DNA of 64,000 nucleotides from Clostridia bacterium (lineage in GTDB: Bacteria > Bacillota > Clostridia > UMGS1883). How positions within the stretch are numbered: position 1 is the first letter of the stretch; every line of letters starts with the position of its first letter. Where the stretch lies: contig JAUNBL010000005.1 of assembly GCA_030527235.1 (NCBI GenBank), positions 9,798-73,797 on the forward strand. Reading direction: 5' to 3'. Below the pieces are notes generated by a model. That model saw nothing but the letters and a program-made list of their open reading frames with translations, was not told the origin of the DNA and searched no databases. Below, in pieces: positions 13,351 through 46,628 of the stretch. The position numbers and the translations under genes are program-made.

Positions 13351-13530
13351 AAAATACTTCCTCCTCCAAAATATTAGTTTTTTGTGATGCGATTTTAAGC
13401 TAAAGTTTGCGCCCCCTCTCACAATGGCAATAGAATTGCGATTATCCCCCTCAATTATCTGCCGTACCTCCTCTAACTGACACGCTTTATGCTTCAATTA
13501 AATGCTTTCAAGATGTTTTCTTGTATATTA

Positions 13531-16441: not shown

Positions 16442-16479
16442 TATTGTTGTATATATTTTGTCAGAACGGAGTGAACTCA

Positions 16480-20056: not shown

Positions 20057-23000
20057 TTTTCTATCGCTGCGGTAAGCGGCTCAAATGCTCCGTCTGTACT
20101 AACTGCCATAATTTTCAGTGTGCAGCCGTTTTCGTATTCTGTAAGCGCAAACGTTGCTTGTGTCGCAGCAGAGGCTGAAAGATTAACATCTTTAACTTCC
20201 ACGGCTTTAAGTACTCCGCCCGAGTAAATCGCGGCAATCAGTTTTGCTCTGCCGGATGCGGGAGCATAGAGTTTTGCCGTCTTGCTGGCGCTGTCGTAGG
20301 TAAGGCTGTAATCCGACGAAGAGTATACGTTAAGATTATCCACTCTAAACTGCCACGAAGGCGCACCGCTTCCGCCCTTGAGCGAAACCTTGGCGATATT
20401 GGACGTGGCCGGCGAGTTAGTGCGGAAGGTATAGTTGCTCGCCACAAGAGTATTGTTAACATATACCGTATATGTTCTTGCGGCAATGTTTATCGTACCT
20501 CGCACGTGGTATGTCTGACCCGCAGAATACGAAAGCGAAGTTACCGCCGAGAACGCGCCGGCATTTCTCACGTCTATCGTGCCAGAGGGATTGAATCTGA
20601 CGGCACAATTATACGAATCCCATGTCGAAGGCGTATTTGATGACCCGACAAAGCCGACAAAGCCGTCAATGTTGTTTGAAAACGGCGTCGCGTCGTATTC
20701 AAAATTCACAACACCTGATACCGGTGTAAGTGCGGACGTTGTCCACGAATATGTCGAAAACAGCATGCTGTCCGCATTCAAAACCTGCTCCACAGAGCCG
20801 ATAAGCCTCATCTCGCCTATTTCACCGCTCCATGCGGAATTAGACGGGTTGGACAGGCGTAAAAAGCGAAATGCTCCGCTCTGGCGAGGCGTGTAGACCT
20901 GCCAGTCTGTTCTGTTAGTCACAGCGTTTGTGAGGGCAGACCATGTTTCCCCGTCCTGTGAAGCGTACAAAACCGTGCCCGCGCTCACCGAAGGATCGGC
21001 GCTGTAGGCTTTAATCCAAATTTCCGAAAGCGCTGCGCCATAGCCTTCGCCAAAATCAAATATCATCCACGATGATACTGACGGACATGTCGCCGCGCGA
21101 TTATCAGTCAACAGCGAATAGTTGTACGCTCCGTCCACATCATATGGCGTATGGATAGACGCGTATTGCGGTACGTTTATAACCTCAGTTCCGTCGGCAA
21201 GCGTCACCGTGTCATCAAGCTTCACAAGCGCTTTATACGCTTTATAAAGATTATCCGCTAAAGTTACAAATATCTCCGAAGATATGCTCGTTCCGCCAAG
21301 CGCGTCACAGGCGACAAGGTAATTGTCAAGCGTTTTCTGGTTATAGCGGCCAAGCGGGTCGAATTCGCTGCAAATCAAGTCAACAAAGGCATCCGCATTG
21401 TTAAATACTTCAAAATTATAAGTAATAATCCTCTCATCAGCGCCCTTGGTCACTATAACCTCTACTATGCCCGAACGTGTACCCTTGACAGTGAGCGTGC
21501 CGGCCGCATATACAAAATCCGCCGTGCCTTCAACTTCAATTTCACCCTCTATAGAAGTCAAAGGCGCACTGTACTCCCCGTCCTCAGGCAGGTAGTATGT
21601 GTTATTAATGCTGTAAACCTTGGGCGCAAACTCACCCAGAGCAGCCGAAAGTGAATTTCCGTAAGAGTCTACAAGCACAACATAGTCGCATAATTCACCC
21701 GCCAGTGAAATTGTCTCGCCTGCGTTGCACTCGCGCATGTAAATCTTATACGTGTCATGGTTCAAGCTGTTATTTCTCCACATCTCGCTGACACCTGTGT
21801 CTTCAAAGCCAGCGTCTGTAATCCACGTATGCGCAACGCCGCTGTCCGTCGCAAGGACAAAGACTTTTGCATTCTCCTTCATTTTGAACGTCATTCCGCC
21901 GTTATACTGTCCGTCACTCATACGCTTCGTTCCGATAAGACGCGCGTTCTGGATTATAGACGGAATTTTGGAAAACGTGTTGTCGCAGTTAGCCGTCTTA
22001 GCAGTATTATCGGATGCGCTCTGGTAATAAACTGCCTGATTCTCAACCAGAGGAGTATCCACATAAACGGGATGGTTCACAGAATTTGTGCAGTCAAGCG
22101 CTTCTATGGGCTCATCTCCCGCTGCTGCCGCACCTGTAGACGAGTTTGAGAAGTATATAACCGCCGTGTCCGTATTGCCGTCGGCATCTGTCGCCACAAT
22201 TGTATTCTTACCGTTTGTAAGCACACCGTCCCAATAGAATACATTATTTATAGCAAAATTATTCGGGTGCTTATATACGCCGTTGTCCTTAGTTCCCTTT
22301 GAAACACCGTTTACAGTCAGTGTCACGGCTGAAGAATTGGAATATACTTTTATTGCATTGCCTATATTCTCGCGTACAAACCAGTTCTTTCCAACAACCT
22401 GAAGCACGGGGATATCCTTACGCGCGTAAGCTCTCCAAAGGTAATACACATCCTTTTTATAGCCACCGTAGGTTATCATCGCCTTTGAGTTGATATGGCT
22501 CTTGTACTTGGTATCGCCGAACTCATAGAACGTCCAGTATGTATACATAGGAATCTGGTCCGGCGTTGTCACAAACGTGTATTGAAGCTGACGCTCCACA
22601 CAAAGCTGCTGATATTCTTCCGGCTCCCATGAATCGGTCAGCATTGCGGTTGTGCGCGCTCCGGTCACAAAGTAATCGTTGTGCGTTGTTGCCACGCCGC
22701 CCGCGCTTGTCTCCGAAATATAGTTACTGTTTGCGCCCGGGAAATCGTAATACTCACCGCTGTACCATCCGCGATAGAGGTTGAATCCAAAAATCGCGTC
22801 GGTGTCCTGCATTTGCGCGAACGTATACTGTGAGCCGGTATAACCCATTGAGCACGCATACGCTGCATAGCGAGAGGAATCTTCTTGTTTGACCACTTCA
22901 TAAAGCTCTCGGTTCGCAACAGGAATCTTATCTGTTTCATTTCCGAAGCTCCAGAACACAATCGAAGGATGGTTAAAATTCTGCCGCACCATCTCACGCG

Positions 23001-25098: not shown

Positions 25099-25133
25099 AA
25101 AAACAACTCCCCCCAAAATTTGTTCTTGTAATT

Positions 25134-31353: not shown

Positions 31354-32958
31354 TCAGTATAAAATATTTGCCTCTTGTGCAAGCGGCATCATTACATCGT
31401 TCCATAGGAACACCCTTGCCGTAATGCCGCGAATGCTGCCTTCAACCATTTCGCTCAACGAAACAGAATTAAAACCACTCTCTAACACAAGCTTTTTAAG
31501 CGACGCTTTAACAAGCCGTTCATTCTCAAAGAGCACCATCACGAGAACTGCATTTTTCGCCGCATCTGGGTTATATATCGGCACGTCAACAAAAACCTCT
31601 GTCACATCTCCGCGAAGCGATACCTTTTCGGACGATGCCTGCGCAACAAGATTATTTGCGCTTACAAAAACTTCAAATGACGACACATTCCCCTTATAAA
31701 GCACATTCACTTTTTGAGGACCGATTTTTTGCGCACCAAAACCGCTTATTGTATAGTCCTCCGTTATCTGGCTTGTATTGTCTGCGTAATTCACTGTTAC
31801 AATCATATCGCTTGTATCAAGCTCTTCGCCCAGAATATATTCCGTTTTGGACGGCGCCGTCACCTCGACAGACGAAACAGGACTTATCGTACCCTCGTAT
31901 ACGGCAAAATCATCGAACGAGACGCCTGCACTCATCCAGCGCATGTTTATAAGCAGCAGATTCCATTCATCAGTCGTATGAAGCACCCGCGTACGTGTTT
32001 CCCATTCATTGGATGCCGTTATTGTGGAATAGTCTCCGTCAATCTTGCCCGGCACAAGGCTGTTCGTCTCTTCACGCCAAGTTTGCATCTGCGCTGCGCT
32101 GTACCCGTTGGAGGTAGTTATCTCCAGACCGTTGGCATCCGTTATCGAGGGACCAAACCACATCTGACCTCCGGAAAACGTCGATTTGATTTTATATGTG
32201 ACGGTATATGTCTTATTCGGTTCCAGCTGCAAATACCGTTTTATCGCACCGGACAAATTTGTCCCGCTGTTTTGACCGGTAGAGGTTATATAGTGGTTGT
32301 CGCCCTCAGAATTGTATGCGAAGTTTGAAGTTGTCATCTGCTGGACGCTGGTTTTGCCTTTCGAGCCGGCGCCGACTGTCCAGTCGGTTATATTCGTTCC
32401 GGAAATGCTCTCAAAATCACCGTTCGTGAGCAGATTGACCTTTATGTCCTCATCGTCATAAGCGAAGAAGTTTTCGCAGTTTATCGATGCCGCTGTAAAC
32501 GCATCGTCCAAAAACGCGGCCGCATAAGTCGCACTGAAGTAAAGCGGAAGCGATGAGACGCGCTTAAAGCGAATTGCAAACAGTTCAATCGAGCCGAGCG
32601 TTTCCACCTCGTCGCCGGCGCACATCACTTCAAACGCACCGCTTGAAAGCTCTTTAATATACGTCTTGAAGTTTCCCGCAAGGCGTTCCTCCAGCGCATC
32701 GGACAAAAATTGCGTCTCTTCTCCGTTTTCATCAACCGGAACCGCCGAAAAAGAGTCAAACTCAATTTTCACATCACATGAGAGAAACTTATTGACGCTC
32801 ATCTCCTCAAGCGATACGGTCAGCAAAAACACATCGCCCACTTCAGTCGTGTCCGCAATCGATGCCGTAAGATTTGCCGAAGCCGCGGCAGATGCCACTG
32901 CCGGAAACAGACATAAAACACATATAAGACATATAGCTCTTTTTCTAATATTACTCAT
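31354..32958 (-). CDS. Secreted protein with cohesin-like N-terminal module, CBM-like module, Ig-like module and C-terminal beta module
   Basis: The signal peptide is MSNIRKRAICLICVLCLFPAVASA. The cohesin-like pattern is GDVFLLTVSLEE...DVKIEFDS...IELFAIRFKRV. It also has NLLTNGDFE (CBM4/9-like) and a Big_3-like segment. The start is ambiguous between 32958 and 32979. Confidence 0.55.
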   Translation of the reverse strand: MSNIRKRAICLICVLCLFPAVASAAASANLTASIADTTEVGDVFLLTVSLEEMSVNKFLSCDVKIEFDSFSAVPVDENGEETQFLSDALEERLAGNFKTYIKELSSGAFEVMCAGDEVETLGSIELFAIRFKRVSSLPLYFSATYAAAFLDDAFTAASINCENFFAYDDEDIKVNLLTNGDFESISGTNITDWTVGAGSKGKTSVQQMTTSNFAYNSEGDNHYITSTGQNSGTNLSGAIKRYLQLEPNKTYTVTYKIKSTFSGGQMWFGPSITDANGLEITTSNGYSAAQMQTWREETNSLVPGKIDGDYSTITASNEWETRTRVLHTTDEWNLLLINMRWMSAGVSFDDFAVYEGTISPVSSVEVTAPSKTEYILGEELDTSDMIVTVNYADNTSQITEDYTISGFGAQKIGPQKVNVLYKGNVSSFEVFVSANNLVAQASSEKVSLRGDVTEVFVDVPIYNPDAAKNAVLVMVLFENERLVKASLKKLVLESGFNSVSLSEMVEGSIRGITARVFLWNDVMMPLAQEANILY

Positions 32959-33703
32959 AGCTTTTGCCCTCATTTGCAAGTATAATCTGAAAATCAGCCA
33001 GATTTATAATCCCGTCGTCATTAATGTCAAGATTCTCCTGCCCATCGCTGCTCTCTCCCCACGCAGTCAAAATCTCCTGAAGATCAATGTTGTCTATAAC
33101 CCCGTCCGCCGTGACATCACCGCCGTACAGCTCCACATTGCCAAGGTTAATACTGCTCGTCGCGTCTACGTCCTTATATGTTTTATATAAGTATCCCTCG
33201 CGCCCCAACACAACATCATAAATTCCGGGCTCAACCACCAATGTGTATCCCCCGCCTTCGTTAAGCGCAGCCGTGGCTGTACCCGCGCTGACGCTCACCC
33301 GCGTTATGTTTGCTCCGCCGCGTACGCTTGCGCTGCCTCGTATTCTCGAAAGCCCATCGTTAATAAGGGCAATCGTACCTGTAGCATACGAGTCAAGGTC
33401 TATGCCTCCCAGGTAATACGTATACGTCTGCGCACTGTTTTTAAGAGGCACCGTGAAACTCACCATAGAGCCTTCCACTTTCTTTTGACCCATATAGCAA
33501 ATATCCTCATCGCTATAATTAATAATGCTCTTGTCAGACGGTAAAACAAGAATCGTCGCAACCTGCTCGTCCAAGCTGTCGGCATATGAGAACGCAACAA
33601 CAGCCATCGTCACATCGCTCTCAATGTCTACATCCGTTATTCGCGCCGCATATGCACCGGTTGCGGCAAACAGCGCCAAAACCATTACTATGGCCTTTTT
33701 CAT
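32951..33703 (-). CDS. Secreted dockerin-containing protein
   Basis: It has a signal peptide. The C-terminus carries a duplicated Ca-binding dockerin repeat (GDVTADGVIDNIDLQEIL and LDINDDGIINLADFQIIL, about 32954-33135), preceded by a carboxypeptidase-regulatory-like fold. Confidence 0.7.
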   Translation of the reverse strand: MKKAIVMVLALFAATGAYAARITDVDIESDVTMAVVAFSYADSLDEQVATILVLPSDKSIINYSDEDICYMGQKKVEGSMVSFTVPLKNSAQTYTYYLGGIDLDSYATGTIALINDGLSRIRGSASVRGGANITRVSVSAGTATAALNEGGGYTLVVEPGIYDVVLGREGYLYKTYKDVDATSSINLGNVELYGGDVTADGVIDNIDLQEILTAWGESSDGQENLDINDDGIINLADFQIILANEGKSYE

Positions 33704-34797: not shown

Positions 34798-36459
34798 TTG
34801 AGAAAAGTGCTTCTGGTTGAGGATAACTTAATAAACAGAAAAATGCTGCACGATATTTTGTCCGATGACTATGACGTAATGGAAGCGCAGAACGGGCAGC
34901 AGGCGCTCGACATTCTGGCGCAGTGCGCAGAGGAAATTTCAATTATTTTGCTGGATATTGTAATGCCCATTATGGACGGCTACACGTTTTTGTCTATTGT
35001 GAAGAATACAGCCCAATACTCTTCGATTCCTATAATTGTGACAACGCATAACGACCATGAATCTGATGAGGTTTTGGCGCTTGAGCGCGGGGCAACGGAT
35101 TTTGTTACAAAGCCGTATAAGGCAAACGTCATTCTTCACAGAGTGGCAAGCCTTATAAAGCTGCGTGAAACCGCCGCAATGGTTAATTTGTATCAATACG
35201 ACCGCTTAACGGGACTTTATACGACGGAATATTTTTACCAGCAGGCGCGGAATATTCTTACCGGCAACCCTGATAAGACGTACGATATTGCCTGCTGTAA
35301 TATAGAAAAATTCAAGCTGTTGAATGACGTATTCGGAATTCCGGCGGGAGATGCTCTGATACGCGCTCTTGCGCAGATTATCAGTGAGTCTGTGGACAAA
35401 AGAGGTATTGCATGTCGTTTGTGGGCGGACCAGTTTGCTTGTATGGTGGAACGCCGCAGTAAATATAGCAACGAGGATTTTGAAAGAATCCTTGATATTC
35501 TCAAATCAAAATTCAATTTACAAAATGTTGTTATTAAATGGGGCATATGTCCCGTGGACGCTCAGGATTTGTCGGTGGAAAAAATGTGCGACAGGGCGAT
35601 GCTTGCGGCAAAGAGCATTTACGGACAGTACGGGAAACATTTTGCCGTGTATGATGATTTAATGCGGGGACAAATGCTTCAGGAGCAGGCAATTACGGAC
35701 GGTATGCAAGAAGCGCTAAACGAGAAACAGTTTGAAGTCTTTTTGCAGCCGCAGTTTAGCATTTCGCAAAATACAATAAGCGGTATTGAAGCGCTGGTTC
35801 GCTGGAAACATCCGGAGATGGGCTTTTTATCACCTGCGGCATTTATACCCGTGTTTGAAAAAAACGGATTCATAACGAAGCTCGATGAGTATGTCTGGGA
35901 CAGGGTGTGCGAGATGATGCGCGGCTGGGATGAAAAAGGCTATCCGAAACTTCCCGTTTCTGTAAATGTGTCAAGAGCTGACGTCTATAATGCGGATTTG
36001 CCGGACACACTGGCTCAAATAATTAAGAGCCATGCTCTGACTCCCGACCGGCTGCACCTTGAGGTAACCGAGAGCGCATATATAGGCAATTCCGAAAATA
36101 TTATCAGTATAATTGAAAAGCTGCGCAGCATGGGCTTTCCCATTGAAATGGATGACTTTGGCAGCGGATATTCGTCGCTAAACATGCTGAACGATTTGCC
36201 CATTGATGTGCTTAAACTGGATATGCGATTTGTTCAGAATAAGACCGGGAAGCCTATCCGCCACGAGATTTTACAGTTCATTATAGATTTGGCTAAGAAG
36301 ATGAAGCTCAAGCTGATTGCCGAGGGCGTGGAAACAAAAGAGCAGCTTGAGCGGCTTAGAGTAATAGGATGCGAGTATGTTCAGGGATACTATTTTGCGA
36401 AACCTATGTCTCAGCATGAATTTGAAGCGCTTTTAGAACGAGAAATGGCCAATGTGTGA
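34798..36459 (+). CDS. Response regulator: REC, degenerate GGDEF, and EAL (c-di-GMP phosphodiesterase)
   Basis: REC is shown by LLVEDN...LLDIVMPIMDG. The GGDEF-like domain has WADQF (35422-35436) where GGDEF would be. The EAL domain keeps EAL (35788-35796), NVS, EVTE, DDFGSGYSSL, KLD, EGVE and QGY. The TTG start follows GGGGAGG. Confidence 0.85.
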   Translation: MRKVLLVEDNLINRKMLHDILSDDYDVMEAQNGQQALDILAQCAEEISIILLDIVMPIMDGYTFLSIVKNTAQYSSIPIIVTTHNDHESDEVLALERGATDFVTKPYKANVILHRVASLIKLRETAAMVNLYQYDRLTGLYTTEYFYQQARNILTGNPDKTYDIACCNIEKFKLLNDVFGIPAGDALIRALAQIISESVDKRGIACRLWADQFACMVERRSKYSNEDFERILDILKSKFNLQNVVIKWGICPVDAQDLSVEKMCDRAMLAAKSIYGQYGKHFAVYDDLMRGQMLQEQAITDGMQEALNEKQFEVFLQPQFSISQNTISGIEALVRWKHPEMGFLSPAAFIPVFEKNGFITKLDEYVWDRVCEMMRGWDEKGYPKLPVSVNVSRADVYNADLPDTLAQIIKSHALTPDRLHLEVTESAYIGNSENIISIIEKLRSMGFPIEMDDFGSGYSSLNMLNDLPIDVLKLDMRFVQNKTGKPIRHEILQFIIDLAKKMKLKLIAEGVETKEQLERLRVIGCEYVQGYYFAKPMSQHEFEALLEREMANV

Positions 36460-36473
36460 AAGGACGGATTGTT

Positions 36474-36857
36474 ATGGGAGAGATTCGAGATACACGAGCT
36501 TTGTGTGAAGCATACGGCGTAAACTACGATGAAACCATGGAGCGATTTATGGGAAAGGAGAAATCATATCTAAAATTTTTGGGTATGCTGTTTGACGATG
36601 GCAGCCTTGACAGCCTGAAAACGGCGCTTGACAAAAATGATTTTGAAGGCGCTTTTCATTTTGCGCATACGCTAAAAGGGCTTAGCTCCAACTTGGGACT
36701 TGTGCGCATGTATGAACAGACTGTCGTAATTGTGGAAAGTCTGCGCACAAAGGATACAAAAGCAGATTATCAAGCAATGTACAACGTCCTTTTACAGCAG
36801 TTTGAAAAGGTGAAAGAGTTTTATGCGAAAATGCAAGAATGTGTAAATGAACAATAA
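36474..36857 (+). CDS. Stand-alone Hpt (histidine phosphotransfer) domain protein
   Basis: HFAHTLKGLSSNLGL has the HxxKG phospho-His motif, with the His codon at 36666-36668. It starts 14 nt after the REC-EAL stop. Confidence 0.7.
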   Translation: MGEIRDTRALCEAYGVNYDETMERFMGKEKSYLKFLGMLFDDGSLDSLKTALDKNDFEGAFHFAHTLKGLSSNLGLVRMYEQTVVIVESLRTKDTKADYQAMYNVLLQQFEKVKEFYAKMQECVNEQ

Positions 36858-36909
36858 TTTTTCAAAGATGACAACACAGAAATATCACAAAATAAAAGGA
36901 ACAAATTGC

Positions 36910-36938
36910 TTGACAACTTCGTTCAAATATATTAAACT
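36910..36938 (+). promoter_or_regulatory. Candidate promoter of the PepSY protein gene
   Basis: TTGACA, 17-nt spacer, TAAACT. Confidence 0.5.
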
Positions 36939-36997
36939 CTAAATGTGCCGGGCGTTGGCACGAAGAGAGAAAATTAATGAAAAAGGAGATGACTTAA

Positions 36998-37819
36998 ATG
37001 AAGAAAAAATTTACGGTGGTAGCGGCAGTTGTGATGTGCGTAATATGCGTGGCGATAGGAGCGACATGCGCGACTGTGGTACAGACGATTCAGGCTGAAA
37101 TCAGGCCCGACTTCAGCGTGGTGATTGACGGACAGGAGACAGTTTTCAAAAATGCACAGGGTGATGTCGTTTATCCGATGTTTTATAACGGCACAACATA
37201 TCTTCCCATCCGTGCGATAGGGGAAATGATGGGCAAGACGGTTTACTGGTATGAGGAAGATAAGCGCATAGAACTTAAAAGCGAAACTTCAACCGTGACC
37301 GATGCCGATGTTATAATCACAAGCGGGGGCGGCGCCGGACGTACTGCAATCACGACAAGCGGCAGTGAGATTACCCTGGACGAGGCAAAGGCGATTGCCC
37401 TTGACAAGGCAGGACTTGATGAGAGCGTGGTCACTTTTACAAAGGCAAAACTTGAGACTGACGACGGCGTTCGTGAGTATGATATTGAGTTCTGGAAAGA
37501 CAACGTGGAATATTCTGCGGAAATCCGCGCGTCGGACGGCGCTGTCTTGTCGTGGGATATTGACATGGAGAGGACGCTCAGCGACACAAGCGCATCCGTC
37601 GAACAGACGGGAGATATCGGCTTGGAAAAGGCTAAAGAGATTGCTCTTGCAAAGGCGGGGTTTGACGCTTCGGAGGTTGTTTTCACAGAAACATCTCTTG
37701 AGTATGACGATGGCAGACGCGTATACGAGATAGAATTTGTAAAAGACTATGTAGAGTATTCGGCAGAGATTCTCGCTTCAGACGGGACGCTTGTTTCCTG
37801 GGATATTGACAGAGACTGA
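36998..37819 (+). CDS. Secreted/anchored protein with copper-amine-oxidase N-terminal-like stalk domain and two PepSY domains
   Basis: N-terminal TM helix, then NGTTYLPIRAIGEMMGKTVYWYEEDKRIEL (Cu_amine_oxidN1-like). Two tandem repeats of about 68 aa end in VEYSAEI.ASDG...SWDID (about 37371-37570 and 37612-37816). Confidence 0.7.
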   Translation: MKKKFTVVAAVVMCVICVAIGATCATVVQTIQAEIRPDFSVVIDGQETVFKNAQGDVVYPMFYNGTTYLPIRAIGEMMGKTVYWYEEDKRIELKSETSTVTDADVIITSGGGAGRTAITTSGSEITLDEAKAIALDKAGLDESVVTFTKAKLETDDGVREYDIEFWKDNVEYSAEIRASDGAVLSWDIDMERTLSDTSASVEQTGDIGLEKAKEIALAKAGFDASEVVFTETSLEYDDGRRVYEIEFVKDYVEYSAEILASDGTLVSWDIDRD

Positions 37820-37831
37820 AGAATGCTTGAG

Positions 37832-37861
37832 AAGAACCCCGCTTTTATCGGCGGGGTTCTT
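37832..37861 (+). terminator. Hairpin after the PepSY gene (weak T-run)
   Basis: Stem AAGAACCCCGC / GCGGGGTTCTT. Confidence 0.4.
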
Positions 37862-37931
37862 AACTGAATTTTGATTGCGGCCGCAGCGTATGGCTTCGGC
37901 TGTTTGTTTTATTTTTCGCGGAGGTGAAAGT

Positions 37932-39515
37932 ATGCAAAGCACGCGCCGGGGACTTGCGTTTATATTGGCTATTTATATGTTTGCGGCGCCAGTTTGTTCT
38001 ATGGCGCGGGAGAGAGAAAGCGTAATGCTTGCCGCTGCGGATTATTTGGCGGCGCTGACTAAAAACCCACACACTGCCGTTACCGGGGGGGAATGGCTTG
38101 TTATTGGGCTTGCACGGAGCGGAGCGCCCTGCGGAGAACACGCGTCAAATTACTACCAAAATCTCTGTTCACATTTGCGCGAGCGAGGCGGAATTCTGAG
38201 CGCCAGCAAATATACGGAATATTCGCGCGCAGCGCTTGCGCTCACAGCGATAGGAGCGGATGCTTCCAATGTTGCGGGCTTTGACCTGACAAAACCTCTT
38301 GGAGATATTGAGAAGGTTGCCGCACAAGGCTGCAACGGTCCGATTTTTGCGCTTCTTGCGCTCGACTGCGGAAACTACTTTGCTGCTGAAGGCGTTCGAG
38401 AGGAACTTGTAGCCCGTATACTCTCGTGTCAGAGCGAGGAGGGCGGTTTCTGCGCAGCTCCCGGGACAAAGGCGGATGTGGATATTACGGCGATGGCGTT
38501 GTGCGCCCTTGCCGAATATACGCAGGATGCCGCCGTGCGCGCAGCGCAGGAGCGCGCGCTGGAGTTTCTTTCAAACAATCAGCTTGCCGGCGGAGGATTT
38601 GAAGGGGCGTACGGCGAAAGCGCGGAGAGCTGCGCACAGGTTCTGATTGCTTTGGCTGCGCTTGGTATCAGCGCGCAGGACGAGCGATTTGTAAAGGACT
38701 CCTATACCCCGATAGACGCTCTCCTTGCTTGTTATGTACCCGGCGAGGGGTTTTCCCGCATCGCGGGCGGGCAGACAGACCCTATGACAAGCGAGCAGGC
38801 GCTGTGCGCGCTTGCTGCATACAAGCGATTTGAAAACGGTGAAAGCGCTTTTTACGACATGAAGGACGCTGTGGTAATTTACGGCGGAGAAAGTACGTTT
38901 GGTCTGAACAACAGAAGTGAGAGAATCAATTTTGTACCACTGCTGTACCCTGGTAAAAGCTTTGAAGATATACAAACCATTGCTGCAAGGGAATCTATAG
39001 AGGCGCTTGCTGCACGAGGGATTATAAGCGGCAGAAGCGCCGGTGTGTTCGATGGGGAGGGAGGTATAACACGCGCGGAATTTGCCGTAATCATGACCCG
39101 CGCGCTCGGAATTGCCACGGAAAATGAATGCGCGTTTTCCGATGTCCACCCGAATTCCTGGTACTCTAACAGTGTCGCTGCTGCGCACAGCGCAGGTCTT
39201 ATAACCGGAGTGACAGAGAAACTGTTTTGCCCCAACGATATGGTAACTCGTGCGCAAGGCGCTGTTATCTTAGCTCGTGCCGCAAGCTTGTGCGGGCTTG
39301 AAACGGATTTTACCGATTCCGCCGTGCGCGATGTGCTTTCACAGTTTGAAGACTATACAACTGTAGAATCATGGGCGCGTAAAGCTCTTGCGTTTTGCTT
39401 TGAAAGTGGTATAATGGAACAAAGCGCAATGGAAATCGGAGCTGATTTACCGTTGGAAAGATGTCAGAGCGCGCAAATGGTCTATGAACTTATGCGTCTG
39501 GCAAGGCTTTTGTGA
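37932..39515 (+). CDS. SLH-anchored surface protein with prenyltransferase/terpene-cyclase-like alpha/alpha-barrel domain
   Basis: GGAGGTG precedes the ATG at 37932, and a signal peptide follows. Repeated helical-hairpin motifs (GEWLVIGLARSG, GPIFALLALD, EEGGFC, AGGGFEG) span about 38030-38870. Three SLH repeats lie at about 38959-39512. Confidence 0.7.
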   Translation: MQSTRRGLAFILAIYMFAAPVCSMARERESVMLAAADYLAALTKNPHTAVTGGEWLVIGLARSGAPCGEHASNYYQNLCSHLRERGGILSASKYTEYSRAALALTAIGADASNVAGFDLTKPLGDIEKVAAQGCNGPIFALLALDCGNYFAAEGVREELVARILSCQSEEGGFCAAPGTKADVDITAMALCALAEYTQDAAVRAAQERALEFLSNNQLAGGGFEGAYGESAESCAQVLIALAALGISAQDERFVKDSYTPIDALLACYVPGEGFSRIAGGQTDPMTSEQALCALAAYKRFENGESAFYDMKDAVVIYGGESTFGLNNRSERINFVPLLYPGKSFEDIQTIAARESIEALAARGIISGRSAGVFDGEGGITRAEFAVIMTRALGIATENECAFSDVHPNSWYSNSVAAAHSAGLITGVTEKLFCPNDMVTRAQGAVILARAASLCGLETDFTDSAVRDVLSQFEDYTTVESWARKALAFCFESGIMEQSAMEIGADLPLERCQSAQMVYELMRLARLL

Positions 39516-39539
39516 GAATAGAAAAGGAGCTATCTAACA

Positions 39540-40229
39540 ATGCGCAGTAAGGTTGTAACAGTTATCATTATTTTAGCAGTTCTCGCTTCAGCGTATTTCT
39601 TTACCCCGCGCCTGACACAAAAGGCGGAGGCGCCTTTGCCGACCAATCCTGCGCTGCCGGCTGAGCAGACCAATCAAACCGAAGCGAAAATTCAGCCCGA
39701 TGCAATAATTCAAACGGAACCGCTTCTGCCGGAAACAGCGCCGAGCTCAGCTTCTGTTCAAACAGAGTCTCCGAGTGAGGCGGAGGTTGAAAAAGAGCTT
39801 GAGCTGTTATGCACAATAGAGGTGGAGTGCAAGACAATTCTTAACAATATGGGAAATCTTAACTCAGACAAGAAAGAGCTTGTCCCGACAAGCGGGGTGA
39901 TTTTCGCAAAAACATCCGCCGTATTTTACCCTGGCGAGAGCGTGTTTAACGTACTGCGTCGCGAGATGAAGAAGGCTCAGGTGCATTTTGAGTTTGTAAA
40001 CACGCCTCTTTATAACAGCGTCTATGTTGAGGGGATAAACAACCTTTACGAGTTTGACTGCGGCCCGCTTTCGGGCTGGATGTACAGTGTAAACGGCGTT
40101 TTCCCAAACTACGGCTGTTCACGCTATGAGCTTTGCGGCGGCGATGAGATTAAATTGGTGTACACGTGTGATTTAGGCCGTGACGTGGGCGGCGACTATG
40201 CCGCGAATAAGGGGCTTTACGATGAATGA
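39540..40229 (+). CDS. DUF4430 (transcobalamin beta-domain-like) protein with N-terminal anchor and P/E/T/Q-rich linker
   Basis: N-terminal TM helix and a low-complexity linker. The C-terminal domain carries GPLSGWMYSVNG...GDEIKLVY, typical of DUF4430. Confidence 0.75.
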   Translation: MRSKVVTVIIILAVLASAYFFTPRLTQKAEAPLPTNPALPAEQTNQTEAKIQPDAIIQTEPLLPETAPSSASVQTESPSEAEVEKELELLCTIEVECKTILNNMGNLNSDKKELVPTSGVIFAKTSAVFYPGESVFNVLRREMKKAQVHFEFVNTPLYNSVYVEGINNLYEFDCGPLSGWMYSVNGVFPNYGCSRYELCGGDEIKLVYTCDLGRDVGGDYAANKGLYDE

Positions 40230-41103
40230 ATTCAAAAATTTCCACCCTCTCGTGAACGTGGTGTATTTTGCGCTTGTGATGCTGCTTTCCGCAATTTTGA
40301 CACACCCTGTCTGTCTTGCCGTATCGCTCTCTTGCAGCGTATGCTTTGCATTGCTTCTGAACAATGGGAAAGCCGGCAGGACAGTTTTGTTTATATTGCC
40401 TGCGGCTCTTTTTGCCGCACTTATAAATGTTGCCTTCAATCACCGCGGCGCAACGATTTTGGCGTACTTTCCGAGCGGCAATCCGTTCACAATGGAGTCC
40501 GCTGCATATGGCGCCGCCGCCGCCGCGATGGTTGTTACCTCGGTGTGCTGGGCTATGGGTCTTGTAAAAACGCTGACCAGCGATAAGATAGTTTATCTTT
40601 TTTCAAAATCATCTCCCTCGCTGTCGCTTGTATTGTCCATGACGCTGCGGTTTGTGCCGCTTTTTACAATGCGACTTAAAACCGTCGCCGCCGCGCAAAA
40701 GGGGCTTGGCGGAGGCGAAAAAAGCTCTGTACGAGCACGGGTCAGAAATGCAATTTCGGTTTTGTCGATAGTGCTGACTTGGAGCATGGAAAACGCGATT
40801 CAGACGGCGGACAGTATGAAAGGGCGCGGGTATTCTCTGCCTAACCGAAGCGCGTTTTCGATTTTTCGCTTTGACAAACGCGACGGCGCAGCAATGGTCT
40901 ATATAATGCTTTTTGGTGCATCTACTGCGGCGGCGTATTTTTCAGGGGCGATACGGTTTTCGTATTTCCCGATTTTTAAAACATCTCAGCCGTCACCCAT
41001 GACGGCCGTAGGAATGGCGGCGTTTTTGATGCTGTGCGTAATGCCTATAGCCATAAACCTGTGGGAGGGATACAGATGGAAATCGTTAAAGCCGAAAGTT
41101 TGA
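40222..41103 (+). CDS. ECF transporter transmembrane (T) component, CbiQ/EcfT family
   Basis: Polytopic CbiQ-like protein. Its ATG overlaps the DUF4430 gene by 8 nt. Confidence 0.75.
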   Translation: MNEFKNFHPLVNVVYFALVMLLSAILTHPVCLAVSLSCSVCFALLLNNGKAGRTVLFILPAALFAALINVAFNHRGATILAYFPSGNPFTMESAAYGAAAAAMVVTSVCWAMGLVKTLTSDKIVYLFSKSSPSLSLVLSMTLRFVPLFTMRLKTVAAAQKGLGGGEKSSVRARVRNAISVLSIVLTWSMENAIQTADSMKGRGYSLPNRSAFSIFRFDKRDGAAMVYIMLFGASTAAAYFSGAIRFSYFPIFKTSQPSPMTAVGMAAFLMLCVMPIAINLWEGYRWKSLKPKV

Positions 41104-43502
41104 GTTTTAGGTATCCTTGCGCGGCAGAGGACACGCTTCGGGATATTTCGTTTTCCGTTGCGCGCGGGGAGTTCGTCGTGGTTTGCGGAATGACGGGCTG
41201 CGGAAAATCCACGCTGCTGCGGCAGCTTAAACCTTCTCTTGCGCCCCAAGGCGAGAGGAGTGGGGAAATCTTTTTTGAAGGCGCGGCTCTTTATGATATG
41301 TCTTTTGAGGCGCAAAGCCGCAAAATAGGCTTTGTGGCACAGGAGGCGGAGGGACAGGTTGTAACGGACAAAGTCTGGCACGAGATGGCGTTTGTCCTTG
41401 AGAGCTTTGGCTTGCCGAGTGAACAGATACGCGCGCGCGTTGCGGAAACGGCGTGCTTTTTCGGGATACAGTCATGGTTTTACAAGGATGTGAGTACACT
41501 CTCGGGCGGGCAAAAACAAATTCTGAATCTTGCCTCAGTGATGGTGGCGGAGCCATCGCTTTTGCTTTTAGATGAGCCGACAAGCTCGCTTGACCCTGTG
41601 GCGGCAAAAACGTTTTTTGAAACTCTCGCAAGGATAAACAGGGAGACCGGGACCACTATAGTTTTATCAGAGCATCGCATGGAAGACGTTTTTCCTCTTG
41701 CTGACAGAGTTATAGTGATGGATGCGGGAAAAATCATAGCGGACGGAACACTTTCCGAAATTTCACTCAAATTGAAGGAACTAAACCACCCGTTAATAAG
41801 TGCCTTGCCTACCCCGATGCGTATATTTACGGCTTTAGGCGGGGATGGCGAAAGTCCCGTCACGGTTCGCGAAGGGTGCGAGTGGCTTACAGACTTTGCA
41901 AGGAAGCACACTCACAGCGAAAAGCTCTTTGACAGAGGCGAGAGCTTTGCATCAGACGAGACCGCAGCGGAATTGGACAATGTGTGGTTTGCATATGCAA
42001 AAGATGCCCTGCCTGTGCTGACGGGAGTTTCACTCAAAGTGCGCAAGGGCGAGTTCTATGCCATACTGGGAGGAAACGGAGCCGGAAAAACAACGGCGCT
42101 GTCTCTCATAAGCGGCGCAAACGAACCGTTTAGAGGGAAAGTAAAGCTGTTTGGGAAGAAAAAACGTCCGGGGTATGACCCACGAGTAGCTTTGCTGCCT
42201 CAGGAGCCACAGTCGCTTTTTTTGAAGAGTACCTTGGAGCTTGATTTATATGAAAAACTCGGAAGCGACAAAAAAAGTTCTGTCGAGCGCGTGATGAAAC
42301 TTTGCGAGATAGAACACCTACGAAACAGTCATCCCTATGACCTTTCCGGCGGAGAAAAGCAGCGTGCTGCGCTGGCGAAGGTGATTTTATCCGAGCCTGA
42401 TATTTTGCTTTTGGATGAGCCGACAAAGGGACTTGATGCGGCATTTAAGTATGCATTTGCGCAAATCCTCTCCACCTTGCGCATTAACGGCATGACAATC
42501 ATCATGGTGTCACACGATGTGGAGTTTTGTGCAAGATACGCCGACAGGTGCGCAATGTTTTTTGAAGGCACCGTTGTCAGCGAGGGCGAACCGAGAGAGT
42601 TTTTTGCGCAAAAGAGCTTCTACACCACTGTGGCAAACCGCATGGCGCGCCCCGTGCTGCCGGACGCTATTTTGGCGGAAGATATCATACTTGCCTACGG
42701 CGGCGAGATAGCAAAGCCGCCCGAATACGAGCCGCCGAAAGCGCCTTTGGAAAAGGCAGAAACAAAGGAGCCGAAGGTTAGGGAGCGAAGTTCGTGGAAA
42801 AAGGAACGCGTAGTTTGGCTCATACTTTGTGTTTTGATACCGTTCACGATATTTTTTGGCATTCGTTTTATGGAGGACAGAAAATACTTTTTTATATCCC
42901 TGCTTATCGTTTTGGAGTCTATCGCGGCATTTTGCACCGTGTTTGAAAAACGTTCGCCGCACGCGCGGGAAATAGTCACACTAAGCACTCTCGCGGCGCT
43001 GGCGGTTGCATCGCGATTGGTGTTCTTTGCGCTGCCTCAGTTTAAGCCGCTTGCGGCAGTAGTGATAATTGCCGGCGTCAGCCTTGGCGCCGAAGCTGGT
43101 TTTCTGGTGGGCGCGGTTGCCGCGTTTGTGTCAAATATGTTTTTCGGACAAGGTCCGTGGACGCCGTGGCAGATGTTTGCCTTCGGAATGGTAGGCGCGG
43201 TTGCAGGAGCGCTTTTTAACAGCCCAATCCTGCAAAACCTGAAAAAAAAGAAGACCCCGCTGTGTGTTTTCGGAGCGCTTGCTGTAATGCTTATATACGG
43301 CGGTATAATGAATGCCGCCTCAGTGCTGATGTGGCAGCAAAATCCCACGGTGCAGATGTTTTCCGCAGAATATGTCTCAGGCGTTCCGTTTGATGCCGTT
43401 CATGCCACAGGAGTGGTGTTTTTCCTCTATTTTGCCGCAGAACCGATACTCGAAAAAATCGAAAGAATAAAAAACAAATACGGCGTAATGAAGCGCAATT
43501 AA
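41076..43502 (+). CDS. Fused ECF ATPase-ATPase-membrane (S-component-like) protein, 808 aa
   Basis: There are two ABC cassettes (GMTGCGKST / LSGGQKQ / LLLLDEPTSSLD and GGNGAGKTT / LSGGEKQ / LLLLDEPTKGLD). A hydrophobic multi-TM C-terminal domain of about 230 aa follows (from about 42816; QGPWTPWQM motif). The ATG at 41076 follows GGGAGGGA. Confidence 0.75.
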   Translation: MEIVKAESLSFRYPCAAEDTLRDISFSVARGEFVVVCGMTGCGKSTLLRQLKPSLAPQGERSGEIFFEGAALYDMSFEAQSRKIGFVAQEAEGQVVTDKVWHEMAFVLESFGLPSEQIRARVAETACFFGIQSWFYKDVSTLSGGQKQILNLASVMVAEPSLLLLDEPTSSLDPVAAKTFFETLARINRETGTTIVLSEHRMEDVFPLADRVIVMDAGKIIADGTLSEISLKLKELNHPLISALPTPMRIFTALGGDGESPVTVREGCEWLTDFARKHTHSEKLFDRGESFASDETAAELDNVWFAYAKDALPVLTGVSLKVRKGEFYAILGGNGAGKTTALSLISGANEPFRGKVKLFGKKKRPGYDPRVALLPQEPQSLFLKSTLELDLYEKLGSDKKSSVERVMKLCEIEHLRNSHPYDLSGGEKQRAALAKVILSEPDILLLDEPTKGLDAAFKYAFAQILSTLRINGMTIIMVSHDVEFCARYADRCAMFFEGTVVSEGEPREFFAQKSFYTTVANRMARPVLPDAILAEDIILAYGGEIAKPPEYEPPKAPLEKAETKEPKVRERSSWKKERVVWLILCVLIPFTIFFGIRFMEDRKYFFISLLIVLESIAAFCTVFEKRSPHAREIVTLSTLAALAVASRLVFFALPQFKPLAAVVIIAGVSLGAEAGFLVGAVAAFVSNMFFGQGPWTPWQMFAFGMVGAVAGALFNSPILQNLKKKKTPLCVFGALAVMLIYGGIMNAASVLMWQQNPTVQMFSAEYVSGVPFDAVHATGVVFFLYFAAEPILEKIERIKNKYGVMKRN

Positions 43503-43523
43503 AGGCTGCAAATTGCAGCCTTT
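43501..43523. terminator. Short palindromic hairpin between the convergent ECF and nrdD genes
   Basis: AAAGGCTGCAAATTGCAGCCTTT. Confidence 0.4.
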
Positions 43524-43537
43524 GATTGTAGTTTTGT

Positions 43538-45901
43538 TCATATTGATTCGGCAAAACGCTTTATGTCCGATGCGTTTGCAAACTGCTTTGCCTCGCCGCC
43601 GTGAACGACAACAAGGGTGGGCGCCTGCCTTACGCCATAGGTTTGGGTGAGCGCACTGTTTTCCTCCGCGTCTATAATCGTGTAAGAAATCCCGTTTCCG
43701 TCAAGTGCGGATTTGGCAATACGACAGTTGGGGCAGGTCTTCGTTGTGAAAAGAAATATTCCGTCCCTATCGCCGCCTGAAACAGCCGTTTCCTCATCGC
43801 TCTTTTGTACGATGTGAGGTCTTAAAGCAGAGGTTTCAACGTTGTAAACCTTACGGCTTTTGTATTCCTCCGCCTTACCATCGTTCCAGTTCTGAACAGG
43901 GCGATAATAGCCCGTTATGCGGCTGTAAACCTCCGTGCTTTCGCCGCAGTCGGGACAGGTGAAGCACTCACCGGAAATATAGCCGTGATTTTTACAGACA
44001 GAATAAACAGGAGAAAGTGTATAATACGGCAGCTTATAGTTTTGCGCAATTTTGCGCACAAACTCCGCCGCTGATTTCCACGTAGGCATCTTTTCGCCCA
44101 AAAAGGCATGAAAGACAGTACCGGAGGTATACAGTGTCTGGAGTTCATCCTGAATATCAAGAGCCGCAAACACATCGTCCGTATATCCTACGGGGAGGTG
44201 AGAAGAATTCGTATAGTAAGGTGTTTTGCCCTTTTCCGATGCTGTAATTATATCGGGATAACGCTCAACATCATGCTTTGCGAGGCGGTATGTTGTAGAT
44301 TCCGCAGGCGTTGCCTCAAGATTGTAAAGGTCTCCGTATTCCTCCTGATAGTCTGCAAGGCGCTCACGCATATGATTGAGTACGTTCTTAGTAAATTTCT
44401 GTGCGTTTGCCTCGGTAAGGTCGCTCTTAAGCCACGAAGCGTTAAGACAAGCTTCGTTCATCCCCACGAGACCAATCGTGGAAAAGTGGTTTTCAAATGT
44501 GCCGAGATAGCGGCGGGTGTAGGGATACAGACCTTCTCCCAAAAGACGTGTTATAATCTCGCGTTTAACCTTGAGCGAGCGCGCTGAAATATCCATCATT
44601 CTGTCGAGCTTTTTGTAAAAGTCCTCTTCGTTCTCGGCAAGATAAGCAATGCGCGGCATATTGATAGTTACCACGCCGATGGAACCTGTGCTTTCACCGC
44701 TGCCGAAAAATCCGCCGGATTTTTTACGCAGCTCACGCAAATCGAGCCTCAGACGGCAGCACATGCTGCGCACATCGCTCGGAGCCATGTCGCTGTTAAT
44801 ATAGTTTGAAAAATATGGGGTGCCGTATTTAGCCGTCATCTCAAAGAGAAGGCGATTGTTTTCAGTGTCCGACCAATCAAAATCGTTGGTTATTGAATAC
44901 GTGGGGATGGGATATTGGAATCCTCTCCCATTTGCATCGCCTTCTATCATGGTTTCGATAAACGCCTTGTTTATCAAGTCCATCTCAGCCTGACAGTCCT
45001 TATAGCAAAAGTTCATTTCTTTGCCGCCCACAATTGCGGGAAGCTCCGCAAGGTCAGCAGGAACCACCCAGTCAAGCGTGATGTTGGAAAACGGAGCCTG
45101 AGTACCCCAGCGGCTGGGAGTGTTAACGCCGTACACGAAGGACTGGATGCAGTTTTTGACCTCATAGTAAGAGAGGTTATCCGTTTTTACAAACGGCGCA
45201 AGATACGTGTCAAACGACGAGAAAGCCTGCGCACCTGCCCACTCGTTCTGCATAATGCCGAGGAAGTTGACCATCTGGTTACACAGCGAAACAAGGTGTT
45301 TCGCCGGCGCAGACGTAATCTTGCCGGGGACTCCGCCGAGTCCCTCCATAATCAGCTGTTTAAGCGACCAGCCGGCGCAGTAGCCGGTGAGCATGGAAAG
45401 GTCGTGTATATGAATGTCCGCATTGCGGTGCGCGCTTGAAATCTCATCGTCGTAAATCTCTGAAAGCCAGTAATTGGCTGTAATCGCGCCGGAGTTGCTG
45501 AGGATAAGTCCGCCAACGGAGTACGTCACAGTGGAGTTTTCCTTCACTCGCCAGTCGGTAACCTTCACATAGCTGTCCACAAGCTGCTTATAGTCAAGAA
45601 GCGTGGACTTCATGTTTCTTATTCTCTCTCTCTGCTTGCGGTAGAGAATATAACACTTCGCAACGTCGGCATATCCCGCTTGAACGAGTACTGTTTCAAC
45701 GCTGTCCTGAATTTCCTCAACGCTGATAAGATTGTTTTTAATTTTATGTGCGTAGTCGGATGTTACTTTAAGCGCGAGCAAATCGATAATGTCGCTGTTA
45801 TACTGCTTTTCCATCGCGTCAAAAGCTTTGCTTATGGCCGCACTAATTTTGGAAATATTAAAATCAGCAATTCCTCCGTCACGTTTCGTTACCTGATACA
45901 T
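43538..45901 (-). CDS. nrdD: Anaerobic ribonucleoside-triphosphate reductase (class III) with C-terminal glutaredoxin/thioredoxin-fold extension
   Basis: It has an ATP-cone N-terminus, a Zn-ribbon (CFTCPDCG), and the glycyl-radical motif SRITGYY (Gly codon at 43910-43912). A linker of about 47 aa and a 74-aa domain with TCPNC (Cys codon at 43733-43735) follow. Confidence 0.9.
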   Translation of the reverse strand: MYQVTKRDGGIADFNISKISAAISKAFDAMEKQYNSDIIDLLALKVTSDYAHKIKNNLISVEEIQDSVETVLVQAGYADVAKCYILYRKQRERIRNMKSTLLDYKQLVDSYVKVTDWRVKENSTVTYSVGGLILSNSGAITANYWLSEIYDDEISSAHRNADIHIHDLSMLTGYCAGWSLKQLIMEGLGGVPGKITSAPAKHLVSLCNQMVNFLGIMQNEWAGAQAFSSFDTYLAPFVKTDNLSYYEVKNCIQSFVYGVNTPSRWGTQAPFSNITLDWVVPADLAELPAIVGGKEMNFCYKDCQAEMDLINKAFIETMIEGDANGRGFQYPIPTYSITNDFDWSDTENNRLLFEMTAKYGTPYFSNYINSDMAPSDVRSMCCRLRLDLRELRKKSGGFFGSGESTGSIGVVTINMPRIAYLAENEEDFYKKLDRMMDISARSLKVKREIITRLLGEGLYPYTRRYLGTFENHFSTIGLVGMNEACLNASWLKSDLTEANAQKFTKNVLNHMRERLADYQEEYGDLYNLEATPAESTTYRLAKHDVERYPDIITASEKGKTPYYTNSSHLPVGYTDDVFAALDIQDELQTLYTSGTVFHAFLGEKMPTWKSAAEFVRKIAQNYKLPYYTLSPVYSVCKNHGYISGECFTCPDCGESTEVYSRITGYYRPVQNWNDGKAEEYKSRKVYNVETSALRPHIVQKSDEETAVSGGDRDGIFLFTTKTCPNCRIAKSALDGNGISYTIIDAEENSALTQTYGVRQAPTLVVVHGGEAKQFANASDIKRFAESI

Positions 45902-45938
45902 TGTCCATCAATCCCCTTTGGTATATTAAAATAGTCTC

Positions 45939-46628
45939 TTAAGTTTCCCTCAAATATACGTTTTTGACATATGGCGCTGCAATCTCTAAAAATTCACGCA
46001 TCTGCGACAGCGAAAAAGCCGAAAGCCCTGCCGGCGCAAGTATATCCGGAGACGCTGCAAAAGATTGCAAAAAATAACGTTCCGCACCGCAAATAAGCTC
46101 TGCCGCACCTCTAATGCTCTCTTTGGTGTGCAGCGGACGTACCAGCGTGGTGCGAAATTCGTATCTAACAGTGTTTTTAAGCAAAAGTTCCACGCTCTCT
46201 CTTATCGGCGTGGTATCAAAATCCGCCTTGCCGACAACCTTACCATACTCGGCGAGCGAACTTTTAATGTCCATCGCAACATAATCCAAAAGATTATCTT
46301 CCAGCATCTGCGCAAGCGCTTTCGGAAATGAGCCGTTTGTATCAAGCTTCACAAGATAGCCCATGTCCTTCACTCTGGTGATAAAGCTTAATAAATCTGT
46401 TTGCATAAGCGGCTCTCCACCGCTTATGCAAACAGCGTCCAAAACGCCTCGCCTTCTCTCCAAATAAGCAAAGATATTTTCTAAGCTTATTACCCCTCTA
46501 ATACTGGAAATAAGTGAAGCGTTGTGGCAAAATGGGCATCGCATATTGCAACCCCCGGTAAATATCGTACATGCCACCTTCTCCGGAAAATCAAGCAGAG
46601 TAACCTTCTGCAATCCGCAAATGTGCAC
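45939..46628 (-). CDS. nrdG: Anaerobic RNR activating protein (radical SAM)
   Basis: GGCNMRCPFCHN is a CxxxCxxC motif. The GTG start follows GGAGGG. It lies directly upstream of nrdD. Confidence 0.9.
   Translation of the reverse strand: MHICGLQKVTLLDFPEKVACTIFTGGCNMRCPFCHNASLISSIRGVISLENIFAYLERRRGVLDAVCISGGEPLMQTDLLSFITRVKDMGYLVKLDTNGSFPKALAQMLEDNLLDYVAMDIKSSLAEYGKVVGKADFDTTPIRESVELLLKNTVRYEFRTTLVRPLHTKESIRGAAELICGAERYFLQSFAASPDILAPAGLSAFSLSQMREFLEIAAPYVKNVYLRET

Follow-up and report, generated by a model that had tools for sequence, protein, structure and literature searches.

The system analysed here is a four-gene operon at positions 37932–43502 (plus strand) of a 64-kb stretch of DNA from a Clostridia bacterium (contig JAUNBL010000005.1); this whole stretch is called the window below. 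We think that the operon is most likely, though with some reservation, a dedicated acquisition system of this Gram-positive, gut-type bacterium for a corrinoid (vitamin B12, another cobamide or cobinamide). Several described systems resemble it. A CbrT-type vitamin B12 transporter of the energy-coupling factor (ECF) class was reportedly predicted by Rodionov et al. in 2009. Rodionov and colleagues list CbrUVT among B12 uptake systems in their genomic reconstructions (PMC6593275, PMC8123684), and ECF-CbrT transports cobalamin and cobinamide, with hemin unable to compete (PMC5997447). Bacterial surface-anchored proteins with transcobalamin-like SLBB domains and alpha/alpha toroids were described by Burroughs, Balaji, Iyer and Aravind in 2007, in operons with CbiO- and CbiQ-like genes, and were predicted to scavenge B12 or a precursor (PMC1796856). 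That study was computational only and laid stress on fused toroid-SLBB proteins and on a C-terminal cell-wall anchor motif of Gram-positive bacteria. In L. sakei, the cluster lsa1836–1840, which encodes S, AA′, T, beta-like and alpha-like proteins, was assigned to heme uptake by Verplaetse et al. (bioRxiv 10.1101/864751), and no other cassette of this type has been studied genetically. The initial annotation of the window, made from the sequence alone, knew of no characterised example of the architecture. Because the 2007 prediction, the named CbrUVT system and the genetically studied L. sakei cluster all precede it, the architecture is not novel.

The eukaryotic cobalamin binders transcobalamin, intrinsic factor and haptocorrin share the fold pair found in the first two proteins of the operon, an alpha6/alpha6 barrel and a beta-grasp domain with a hairpin insert. 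They are single chains, whereas the window encodes two proteins, one wall-anchored and one membrane-tethered. Sequence identity between the window domains and the eukaryotic binders is only 12–18%, and no protein of the operon matches the Pfam family Cobalamin_bind (PF01122). The eukaryotic binders deliver their ligand to an endocytic receptor, and those of the window are proposed to deliver it to an ECF importer. An analogous logic is seen with BtuG, BtuH and BtuJ of Bacteroides, which are B12-riboswitch-controlled and capture cobamides at the surface in connection with a transporter. Their folds (beta-propeller, DUF4465 and others) are unrelated to those of the window proteins and, unlike these, they are outer-membrane lipoproteins feeding a TonB-dependent transporter. 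A 2026 review describes the possible capture role of BtuH and BtuJ homologues in Gram-positive Firmicutes as “entirely uncharacterized,” and a literature search on DUF4430, CbrUV and corrinoids with SLH proteins returned no biochemical characterisation of the Gram-positive proteins considered here.

The operon comprises gene 1 (37932–39515, 527 aa), gene 2 (39540–40229, 229 aa), gene 3 (40222–41103, 293 aa) and gene 4 (41076–43502, 808 aa). All four are intact in the list of open reading frames (ORFs), lie on the plus strand and are separated by a 24-nt gap, an 8-nt overlap and a 28-nt overlap, respectively, exactly as given in the initial annotation. Genes 3 and 4 had been read as a complete ECF transporter, and this is what we find: a CbiQ-type subunit, two ABC_tran domains and an S component. 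Gene 3 is an EcfT coupling subunit of the CbiQ (CbrU) type (PF02361, 2.9e-10, 40.6 bits against a cutoff of 25) with at least four hydrophobic segments above a simple hydropathy threshold. In gene 4 two ABC_tran matches (4e-54) are followed by a C-terminal ECF S component (PF07155, 4e-9; PF12822, 4e-7). The EcfA domain covers aa 1–255 and EcfA′ aa ∼295–520; the ATPases score 317.2 bits with TIGR04520 (ECF_ATPase_1, cutoff 315) and 302 bits with TIGR04521, which is under the cutoff of 330 for that model. A linker with two extra transmembrane (TM) helices at aa 578–623 (42807–42944), seen in a hydropathy scan, leads to the S component at aa ∼630–805. No specific NCBIfam model was found for gene 2, gene 3 or the S domain of gene 4.

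The S domain bears on the nature of the ligand. When the C-terminal 180 aa of gene 4 were compared with the sequences in the PDB, the sole significant match was CbrT (6FNP_A, E 2.1e-11, 31% over 166 aa), and the second-best match had an E-value of 0.31. The identity falls inside the range of 25–60% quoted for CbrT homologues. ECF-CbrT of L. delbrueckii (PDB 6FNP) and the window system are alike in consisting of EcfT, two ECF-type ATPase domains and a CbrT-homologous S component. They differ in that the window has a dedicated, group I-like module and not an S component sharing a general ECF module, in that A, A′ and S form one 808-aa chain, and in that genes for two extracytoplasmic binder proteins precede the transporter genes, for which the characterised ECF-CbrT has no counterpart. 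The two additional N-terminal TM helices also set the S part of the window apart from L. delbrueckii CbrT (182 aa). The same two helices are present in stand-alone homologues of ∼245 aa from Acetobacterium, Paenibacillus and Clostridium, many of which carry Pfam DUF6580.

The survey covered 83 related loci after removal of redundancy. A scan in which each species was represented by a single genome supplied 80 of them, and metagenome contigs the other three. The 80 belong to Clostridia and other Bacillota, including Oscillospiraceae, Peptococcaceae, Anaerovoracaceae, Paenibacillus, Tissierella and Neglectibacter. Genes for the barrel protein, the DUF4430 protein, EcfT and AA′(S) follow each other as one co-directional block in 55 of the 83 loci, with the position of gene 3 unchanged throughout, and since the same set recurs in this way the arrangement is far beyond chance. 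The question of a conserved neighbourhood, raised in the initial annotation, is thus answered positively. The AA′-S fusion is present in 45 of the 55 complete loci, and SLH repeats are found on the barrel protein in 60 of the 83. Both are the commonest forms among the surveyed relatives and not special to the window. At 15 of the 83 loci the barrel and DUF4430 are fused in one protein. Such fusions are known in both orders, P0060 having DUF4430 first and then the barrel.

For the riboswitches we built an nhmmer profile from the RF00174 elements that Rfam had found at the first loci, and counted those loci with at least 350 nt of upstream DNA. An RF00174 cobalamin riboswitch lies directly 5′ of the cluster in 41 of these 65 loci, so the co-occurrence with B12 riboswitches that had been suggested for examination is borne out among the orthologues. 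The profile calls were checked with Rfam, which agreed on all 10 positives and all 10 negatives compared. Among the neighbouring genes at orthologous loci are BtuR/CobA as well as CbiZ and CbiK, both of which have a riboswitch of their own. As with CbrUVT, relatives of the window operon are therefore under B12 riboswitches and linked to corrinoid salvage genes; the window itself has neither. Together, the CbrT-like S domain, the riboswitches and the CbiZ, CbiK and BtuR neighbours provide strong comparative evidence for a corrinoid as the ligand of the family. The initial annotation had called the substrate open. That view retains some ground in the missing riboswitch of the window, but it does not fit well with an S domain of the CbrT type, riboswitch control of most orthologues and adjoining corrinoid genes.

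The window's copy is without a riboswitch, like about one third of its relatives. We considered that the riboswitch-less loci might be a separate subfamily and rejected this, as they form no clade in a neighbour-joining (NJ) tree and are dispersed among the riboswitch-bearing loci. We also asked how far the window keeps the columns that are at least 90% conserved in riboswitch-linked orthologues. The S domain keeps 54 of 60 (with 7 columns upstream of the trimmed query set aside), EcfT 65 of 78, the DUF4430 domain 48 of 53 and the barrel 75 of 82. As these columns are mostly kept and the riboswitch-less loci are scattered in the tree, the window copy most likely has the same substrate as its relatives. 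The operon is probably expressed without B12 feedback or regulated in another way.

Some clusters of the survey hold further elements. Many of them (L007, L009, L010, L014, L019, L021, L023, L028, L031, L076 and others) begin with an extra giant DUF4430+SLH protein of ∼800–2300 aa, encoded between the riboswitch and the barrel gene, and some contain giant barrel+DUF4430+SLH fusions. The window has no giant DUF4430+SLH gene; its own giant SLH protein (9181–13497, minus strand) is without DUF4430. A second, weaker cobalamin-riboswitch-like element is located on the opposite strand at L001 (6985–7192, minus), L024 (5902–6094, minus) and L055 (5840–6111, minus). The L001 element faces a divergent gene for a 3057-aa DUF4430+SLH protein and overlaps a plus-strand ORF of 206 aa, which has no Pfam match and may be spurious. 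At L068 a glycine riboswitch (4336–4436, minus) lies just 5′ of a riboswitch-less cluster on the opposite strand and is probably unrelated to it.

The two proteins encoded ahead of the importer had been annotated as a split, transcobalamin-like capture pair, and the three families named for them (DUF4430 PF14478, Prenyltrans and SLH) were all matched significantly by profile searches. For gene 2 the proposed N-terminal anchor, linker and DUF4430 domain were all recovered by hydropathy and Pfam. A single hydrophobic segment at aa 5–23 (Kyte-Doolittle scan) forms an N-terminal anchor or signal, followed by a linker of ∼65 aa (aa ∼24–87) rich in E, P, A, T and Q and by the DUF4430, transcobalamin-like SLBB domain at 39801–40184 (aa ∼88–215). 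Pfam places the DUF4430 match at aa 132–209 (1.6e-15), and the motif GWMYSVNG...GDEIKLVY is present. The family has 4813 database homologues. In the AlphaFold2 (AF2) model the core of the domain has a predicted local distance difference test score (pLDDT) of 85–94. In a Foldseek search of the PDB with this model, all 19 matches down to E 2e-3 were to transcobalamin, intrinsic factor, haptocorrin or 3u7z, a DUF4430 structure from R. gnavus. The alignments to the transcobalamin group have the length of the beta domain (∼122–136 columns), and the template modelling score (TM) to 5np4, the isolated human transcobalamin beta domain, is 0.74. A beta-hairpin (150–155 and 160–166) follows the helix 135–145 in the model, and within the SLBB superfamily it is a hairpin in this place that sets the transcobalamin-like clade apart (Burroughs et al., 2007, PMC1796856). 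The relationship of DUF4430 to the transcobalamin beta domain, which the initial annotation had put forward, is supported by these fold matches.

Gene 1 had been described as a secreted barrel protein with three C-terminal SLH repeats, and Pfam, hydropathy and AF2 bear this out. A single hydrophobic N-terminal segment (aa 7–25, Kyte-Doolittle scan) indicates a signal peptide at aa 1–25. The alpha6/alpha6-type barrel extends over 38007–38891 (aa ∼26–320; Prenyltrans PF00432, 7.6e-10; AF2 and Foldseek), and the three SLH repeats lie at 38958–39512 (aa 343–527; PF00395, 1.1e-23), where they are predicted to anchor the protein non-covalently in the cell wall. Residues 339–495 align with the three-repeat SLH module of Sap (PDB 6bt4 and 3pyw, 1e-9). 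The barrel model has 13 main helices, a pLDDT of 90.5 and a predicted TM (pTM) of 0.87. With Foldseek it matches prenyltransferase beta subunits (E 6e-6 to 1e-4) and full-length transcobalamin (2v3n, 2bb6, 4zrp and 7qbe; E 8e-5 to 5e-4), the latter with a query TM (TMq) of 0.56–0.60 over ∼310–320 columns, which is the whole length of the barrel. In the model, the likeness to transcobalamin is a fold-level resemblance with no specific family signature. Of 8000 candidates scored, 536 were homologues of the barrel family at E ≤ 1e-5, and an alignment of 19 sequences, ∼45% identical to the barrel of the window, contains 48 invariant columns. The motif DVDI of gene 1 (aa ∼182–185, ∼38475–38486) aligns with the region of the DxDD(TA) motif of squalene-hopene cyclase. 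The corresponding family motif is A-D-x-D-I-T-A-M-A-L, in which the second Asp is invariant across the family and the last Asp of DxDD is lost; it looks like the relic of a cyclase ancestor.

The operon is of the same class as the SLBB/toroid operons of Burroughs et al. (PMC1796856), from which it differs in having the two domains on separate proteins, an SLH-anchored toroid and an S component identified as CbrT-like. Compared by its published description, the L. sakei cluster has the same five modules, with alpha-like and beta-like proteins that are separate and exported as in the window. There, AA′ and S are separate genes, SLH anchoring is not reported and the assigned ligand is heme.

On the reading we favour, gene 1 would place the alpha/alpha barrel in the cell wall by way of its SLH repeats, and gene 2 would present a beta domain of the transcobalamin type at the end of a flexible tether of ∼65 residues, rooted in the membrane. 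Barrel and beta domain would then close around one corrinoid, in analogy to what transcobalamin and intrinsic factor do; alternatively, the beta domain may bind the corrinoid first and the barrel then cap it. The C-terminal, CbrT-like S domain of gene 4 would next receive the corrinoid, and EcfT together with the fused EcfA-EcfA′ would drive toppling of the S domain, with release of the ligand in the cytoplasm. The folds, the homologies, the gene order and the riboswitch linkage are shown, whereas clamp formation, the hand-off to the S domain and a tether acting as a shuttle are inferred. A split binder is plausible, since intrinsic factor that has been cut by proteolysis into an alpha and a beta fragment comes together again around cobalamin. 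The annotated reading of a split pair with a dedicated importer holds in its main lines, with both folds, the fusions in other loci, the ECF transporter and comparative data beyond the reach of the initial annotation speaking in its favour.

Several observations weigh against a corrinoid system of this kind in the window. The first is the missing riboswitch. The absence of a cobalamin riboswitch upstream of the operon had been noted in the initial annotation and was confirmed by three methods: Rfam at its gathering threshold found none in the whole window, there was no match to an Rfam cobalamin model at E ≤ 10 within 36400–38300, and the nhmmer profile detected none in the window either. The intergenic region 5′ of gene 1 is 112 nt long. 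A terminator-like hairpin read from the sequence at 37834–37859, plus strand (GAACCCCGC / GCGGGGTTC), ends the upstream PepSY gene and leaves ∼70 nt to gene 1, not enough to hold a riboswitch of ∼190 nt. For other regulatory RNAs upstream of the operon, Rfam gave nothing at E < 1 except an implausible lncRNA match. Secondly, B12-dependent or B12-salvage genes are absent from the 64-kb window. Thirdly, the window's system is a long branch with 43–59% identity to its relatives. Fourthly, the barrel is nearest in sequence to terpene cyclases and prenyltransferases and not to transcobalamin, and its structure fits transcobalamin no better than prenyltransferases, which score equal or higher. A profile of the barrel family searched against PDB sequences matched squalene-hopene cyclases and did not reach transcobalamin, and a narrow profile of the DUF4430 family gave low-complexity linker matches only, again without reaching transcobalamin. 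Since these sequence-profile searches failed, the link to transcobalamin rests on PF14478 and the fold comparison. Fifthly, Arg276 of gene 1 (codon CGC, 38757–38759) replaces a nearly invariant barrel His in a GF-x-H motif. Every one of the 48 syntenic orthologues has His at this position; among 119 database homologues, 112 have His and three others Arg. Arg276 could be a change in a ligand contact, or it could be a sequencing or assembly variant. The codon CGC is a single nucleotide away from CAC. The last point is genetic: L. sakei was impaired in accumulating heme once lsa1836–1840 had been deleted, and recovered on complementation (bioRxiv 10.1101/864751).

Some of these points could be accommodated if the window copy were a functionally shifted, constitutive corrinoid “piracy” device with an altered ligand preference and a beta-protein shuttle, which we regard as unlikely. 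The preference could be for a cobamide with another lower ligand, for cobinamide, or even for heme, the ligand claimed in L. sakei. The ligand would cross the wall on the membrane-tethered beta protein, which would take it up at the SLH-anchored barrel and deliver it to the fused S domain. To our knowledge, a relay of this type across the wall has been demonstrated neither for any Gram-positive bacterium nor for any ECF transporter.

A corrinoid importer that works without a transcobalamin-like clamp is unlikely as well. Here the DUF4430 protein would bind the ligand alone, and the SLH barrel would have another role, for example as a wall scaffold, as a docking site or in binding another form of corrinoid. 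The same loci do commonly encode DUF4430 proteins that stand alone and giant, barrel-less DUF4430+SLH proteins, second, paralogous SLBB proteins were noted in such operons by Burroughs et al. (PMC1796856), and the barrel is no nearer to transcobalamin than to prenyltransferases. However, barrel and DUF4430 genes are adjacent and in the same order in the 55 complete loci, and the two occur as single-chain fusions in 15 loci and in P0060. The 48 invariant barrel columns point to a conserved surface for a ligand or partner, and in transcobalamin and intrinsic factor B12 is contacted by both domains (PMC1796856).

Import of heme or another non-corrin tetrapyrrole, by the same alpha/beta capture at the surface and the same ECF transporter, seems quite unlikely to us. 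It draws on the L. sakei deletion and complementation, in a cluster that has the same five modules as judged from the published description, and on a window copy that is divergent, has no B12 riboswitch and carries Arg at the nearly invariant barrel His. Against it, hemin is no competitor of cobalamin in ECF-CbrT (PMC5997447), and the S domain and both binder domains of the window keep ∼90% of the residues conserved in riboswitch-controlled orthologues. The riboswitch-less loci are interspersed with riboswitch-bearing ones, and no heme-related gene is found near the operon. In the L. sakei study the fit of the ligand came from docking, and cobalamin was not among the ligands tested (bioRxiv 10.1101/864751).

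That gene 1 is an extracellular enzyme of the terpene-cyclase/prenyltransferase superfamily, functionally unrelated to the transporter, is very improbable: by sequence it best matches squalene-hopene cyclase and the beta subunits of protein prenyltransferases, and it retains the DVDI remnant at the cyclase DxDD region with the invariant second Asp, but the third Asp is gone, the protein is secreted and wall-anchored where there is no isoprenoid substrate, the synteny with DUF4430 and ECF genes is strict, most orthologues are under a cobalamin riboswitch, and some relatives have barrel and DUF4430 in one chain.

A ribosome-binding site GGAGG (37920–37924, plus strand) lies 7 nt 5′ of the gene-1 ATG, and because of it the ATG at 37932 is preferred as start over an upstream TTG at 37875. 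A convincing sigma-70 promoter was not found in the 112-nt leader. A 16-bp hairpin detected by a terminator scan at 43495–43529 marks the end of the operon and is common to the convergent nrdD gene. On the minus strand at 43538–46628, genes for a class III anaerobic ribonucleotide reductase, NrdD, and its putative activase NrdG (an ORF of 229 aa) converge on the operon; as the class III reductase is B12-independent, NrdD is uninformative on the need of the organism for B12. Directly upstream, at 34798–37819 (plus strand), are genes for a response-regulator-GGDEF-EAL protein, an Hpt protein and a secreted protein with Cu_amine_oxidN1 and two PepSY domains. We found no link between these genes and the operon, and the PepSY gene has its own terminal hairpin. 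The rest of the 64-kb window contains housekeeping and glycoside-hydrolase (GH) genes. Among the latter, and beside them, are a GH30-like protein with ricin and F5/8 domains (16444–19266), a GH2 protein of 1687 aa (20053–25116) and a Big_3 protein beside a dockerin protein (31354–33703). Judged by their sequences, the glycoside-hydrolase and dockerin genes suggest a fibre-degrading Clostridia bacterium that possibly uses a cellulosome. The same sequence is also present on a Logan contig of run SRR24915838.

Taken together, the window operon represents in typical form a widespread cassette on which experiments have been scarce since its prediction in 2007, and the locus itself adds little that is new. 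ECF transporters are textbook importers that work without a soluble binding protein, and this cassette equips such a transporter with two extracytoplasmic binder proteins. At least 80 species of Bacillota have the cassette, many of them from gut and rumen samples, and competition for cobamides shapes gut and rumen communities. The remaining interest lies in the conflict between the one experimental assignment in the family, to heme, and the riboswitch evidence. The survey points out good candidates for biochemistry, and the riboswitch control of most orthologues together with the CbrT-like S domain makes a testable case for a corrinoid as the native ligand of the family.

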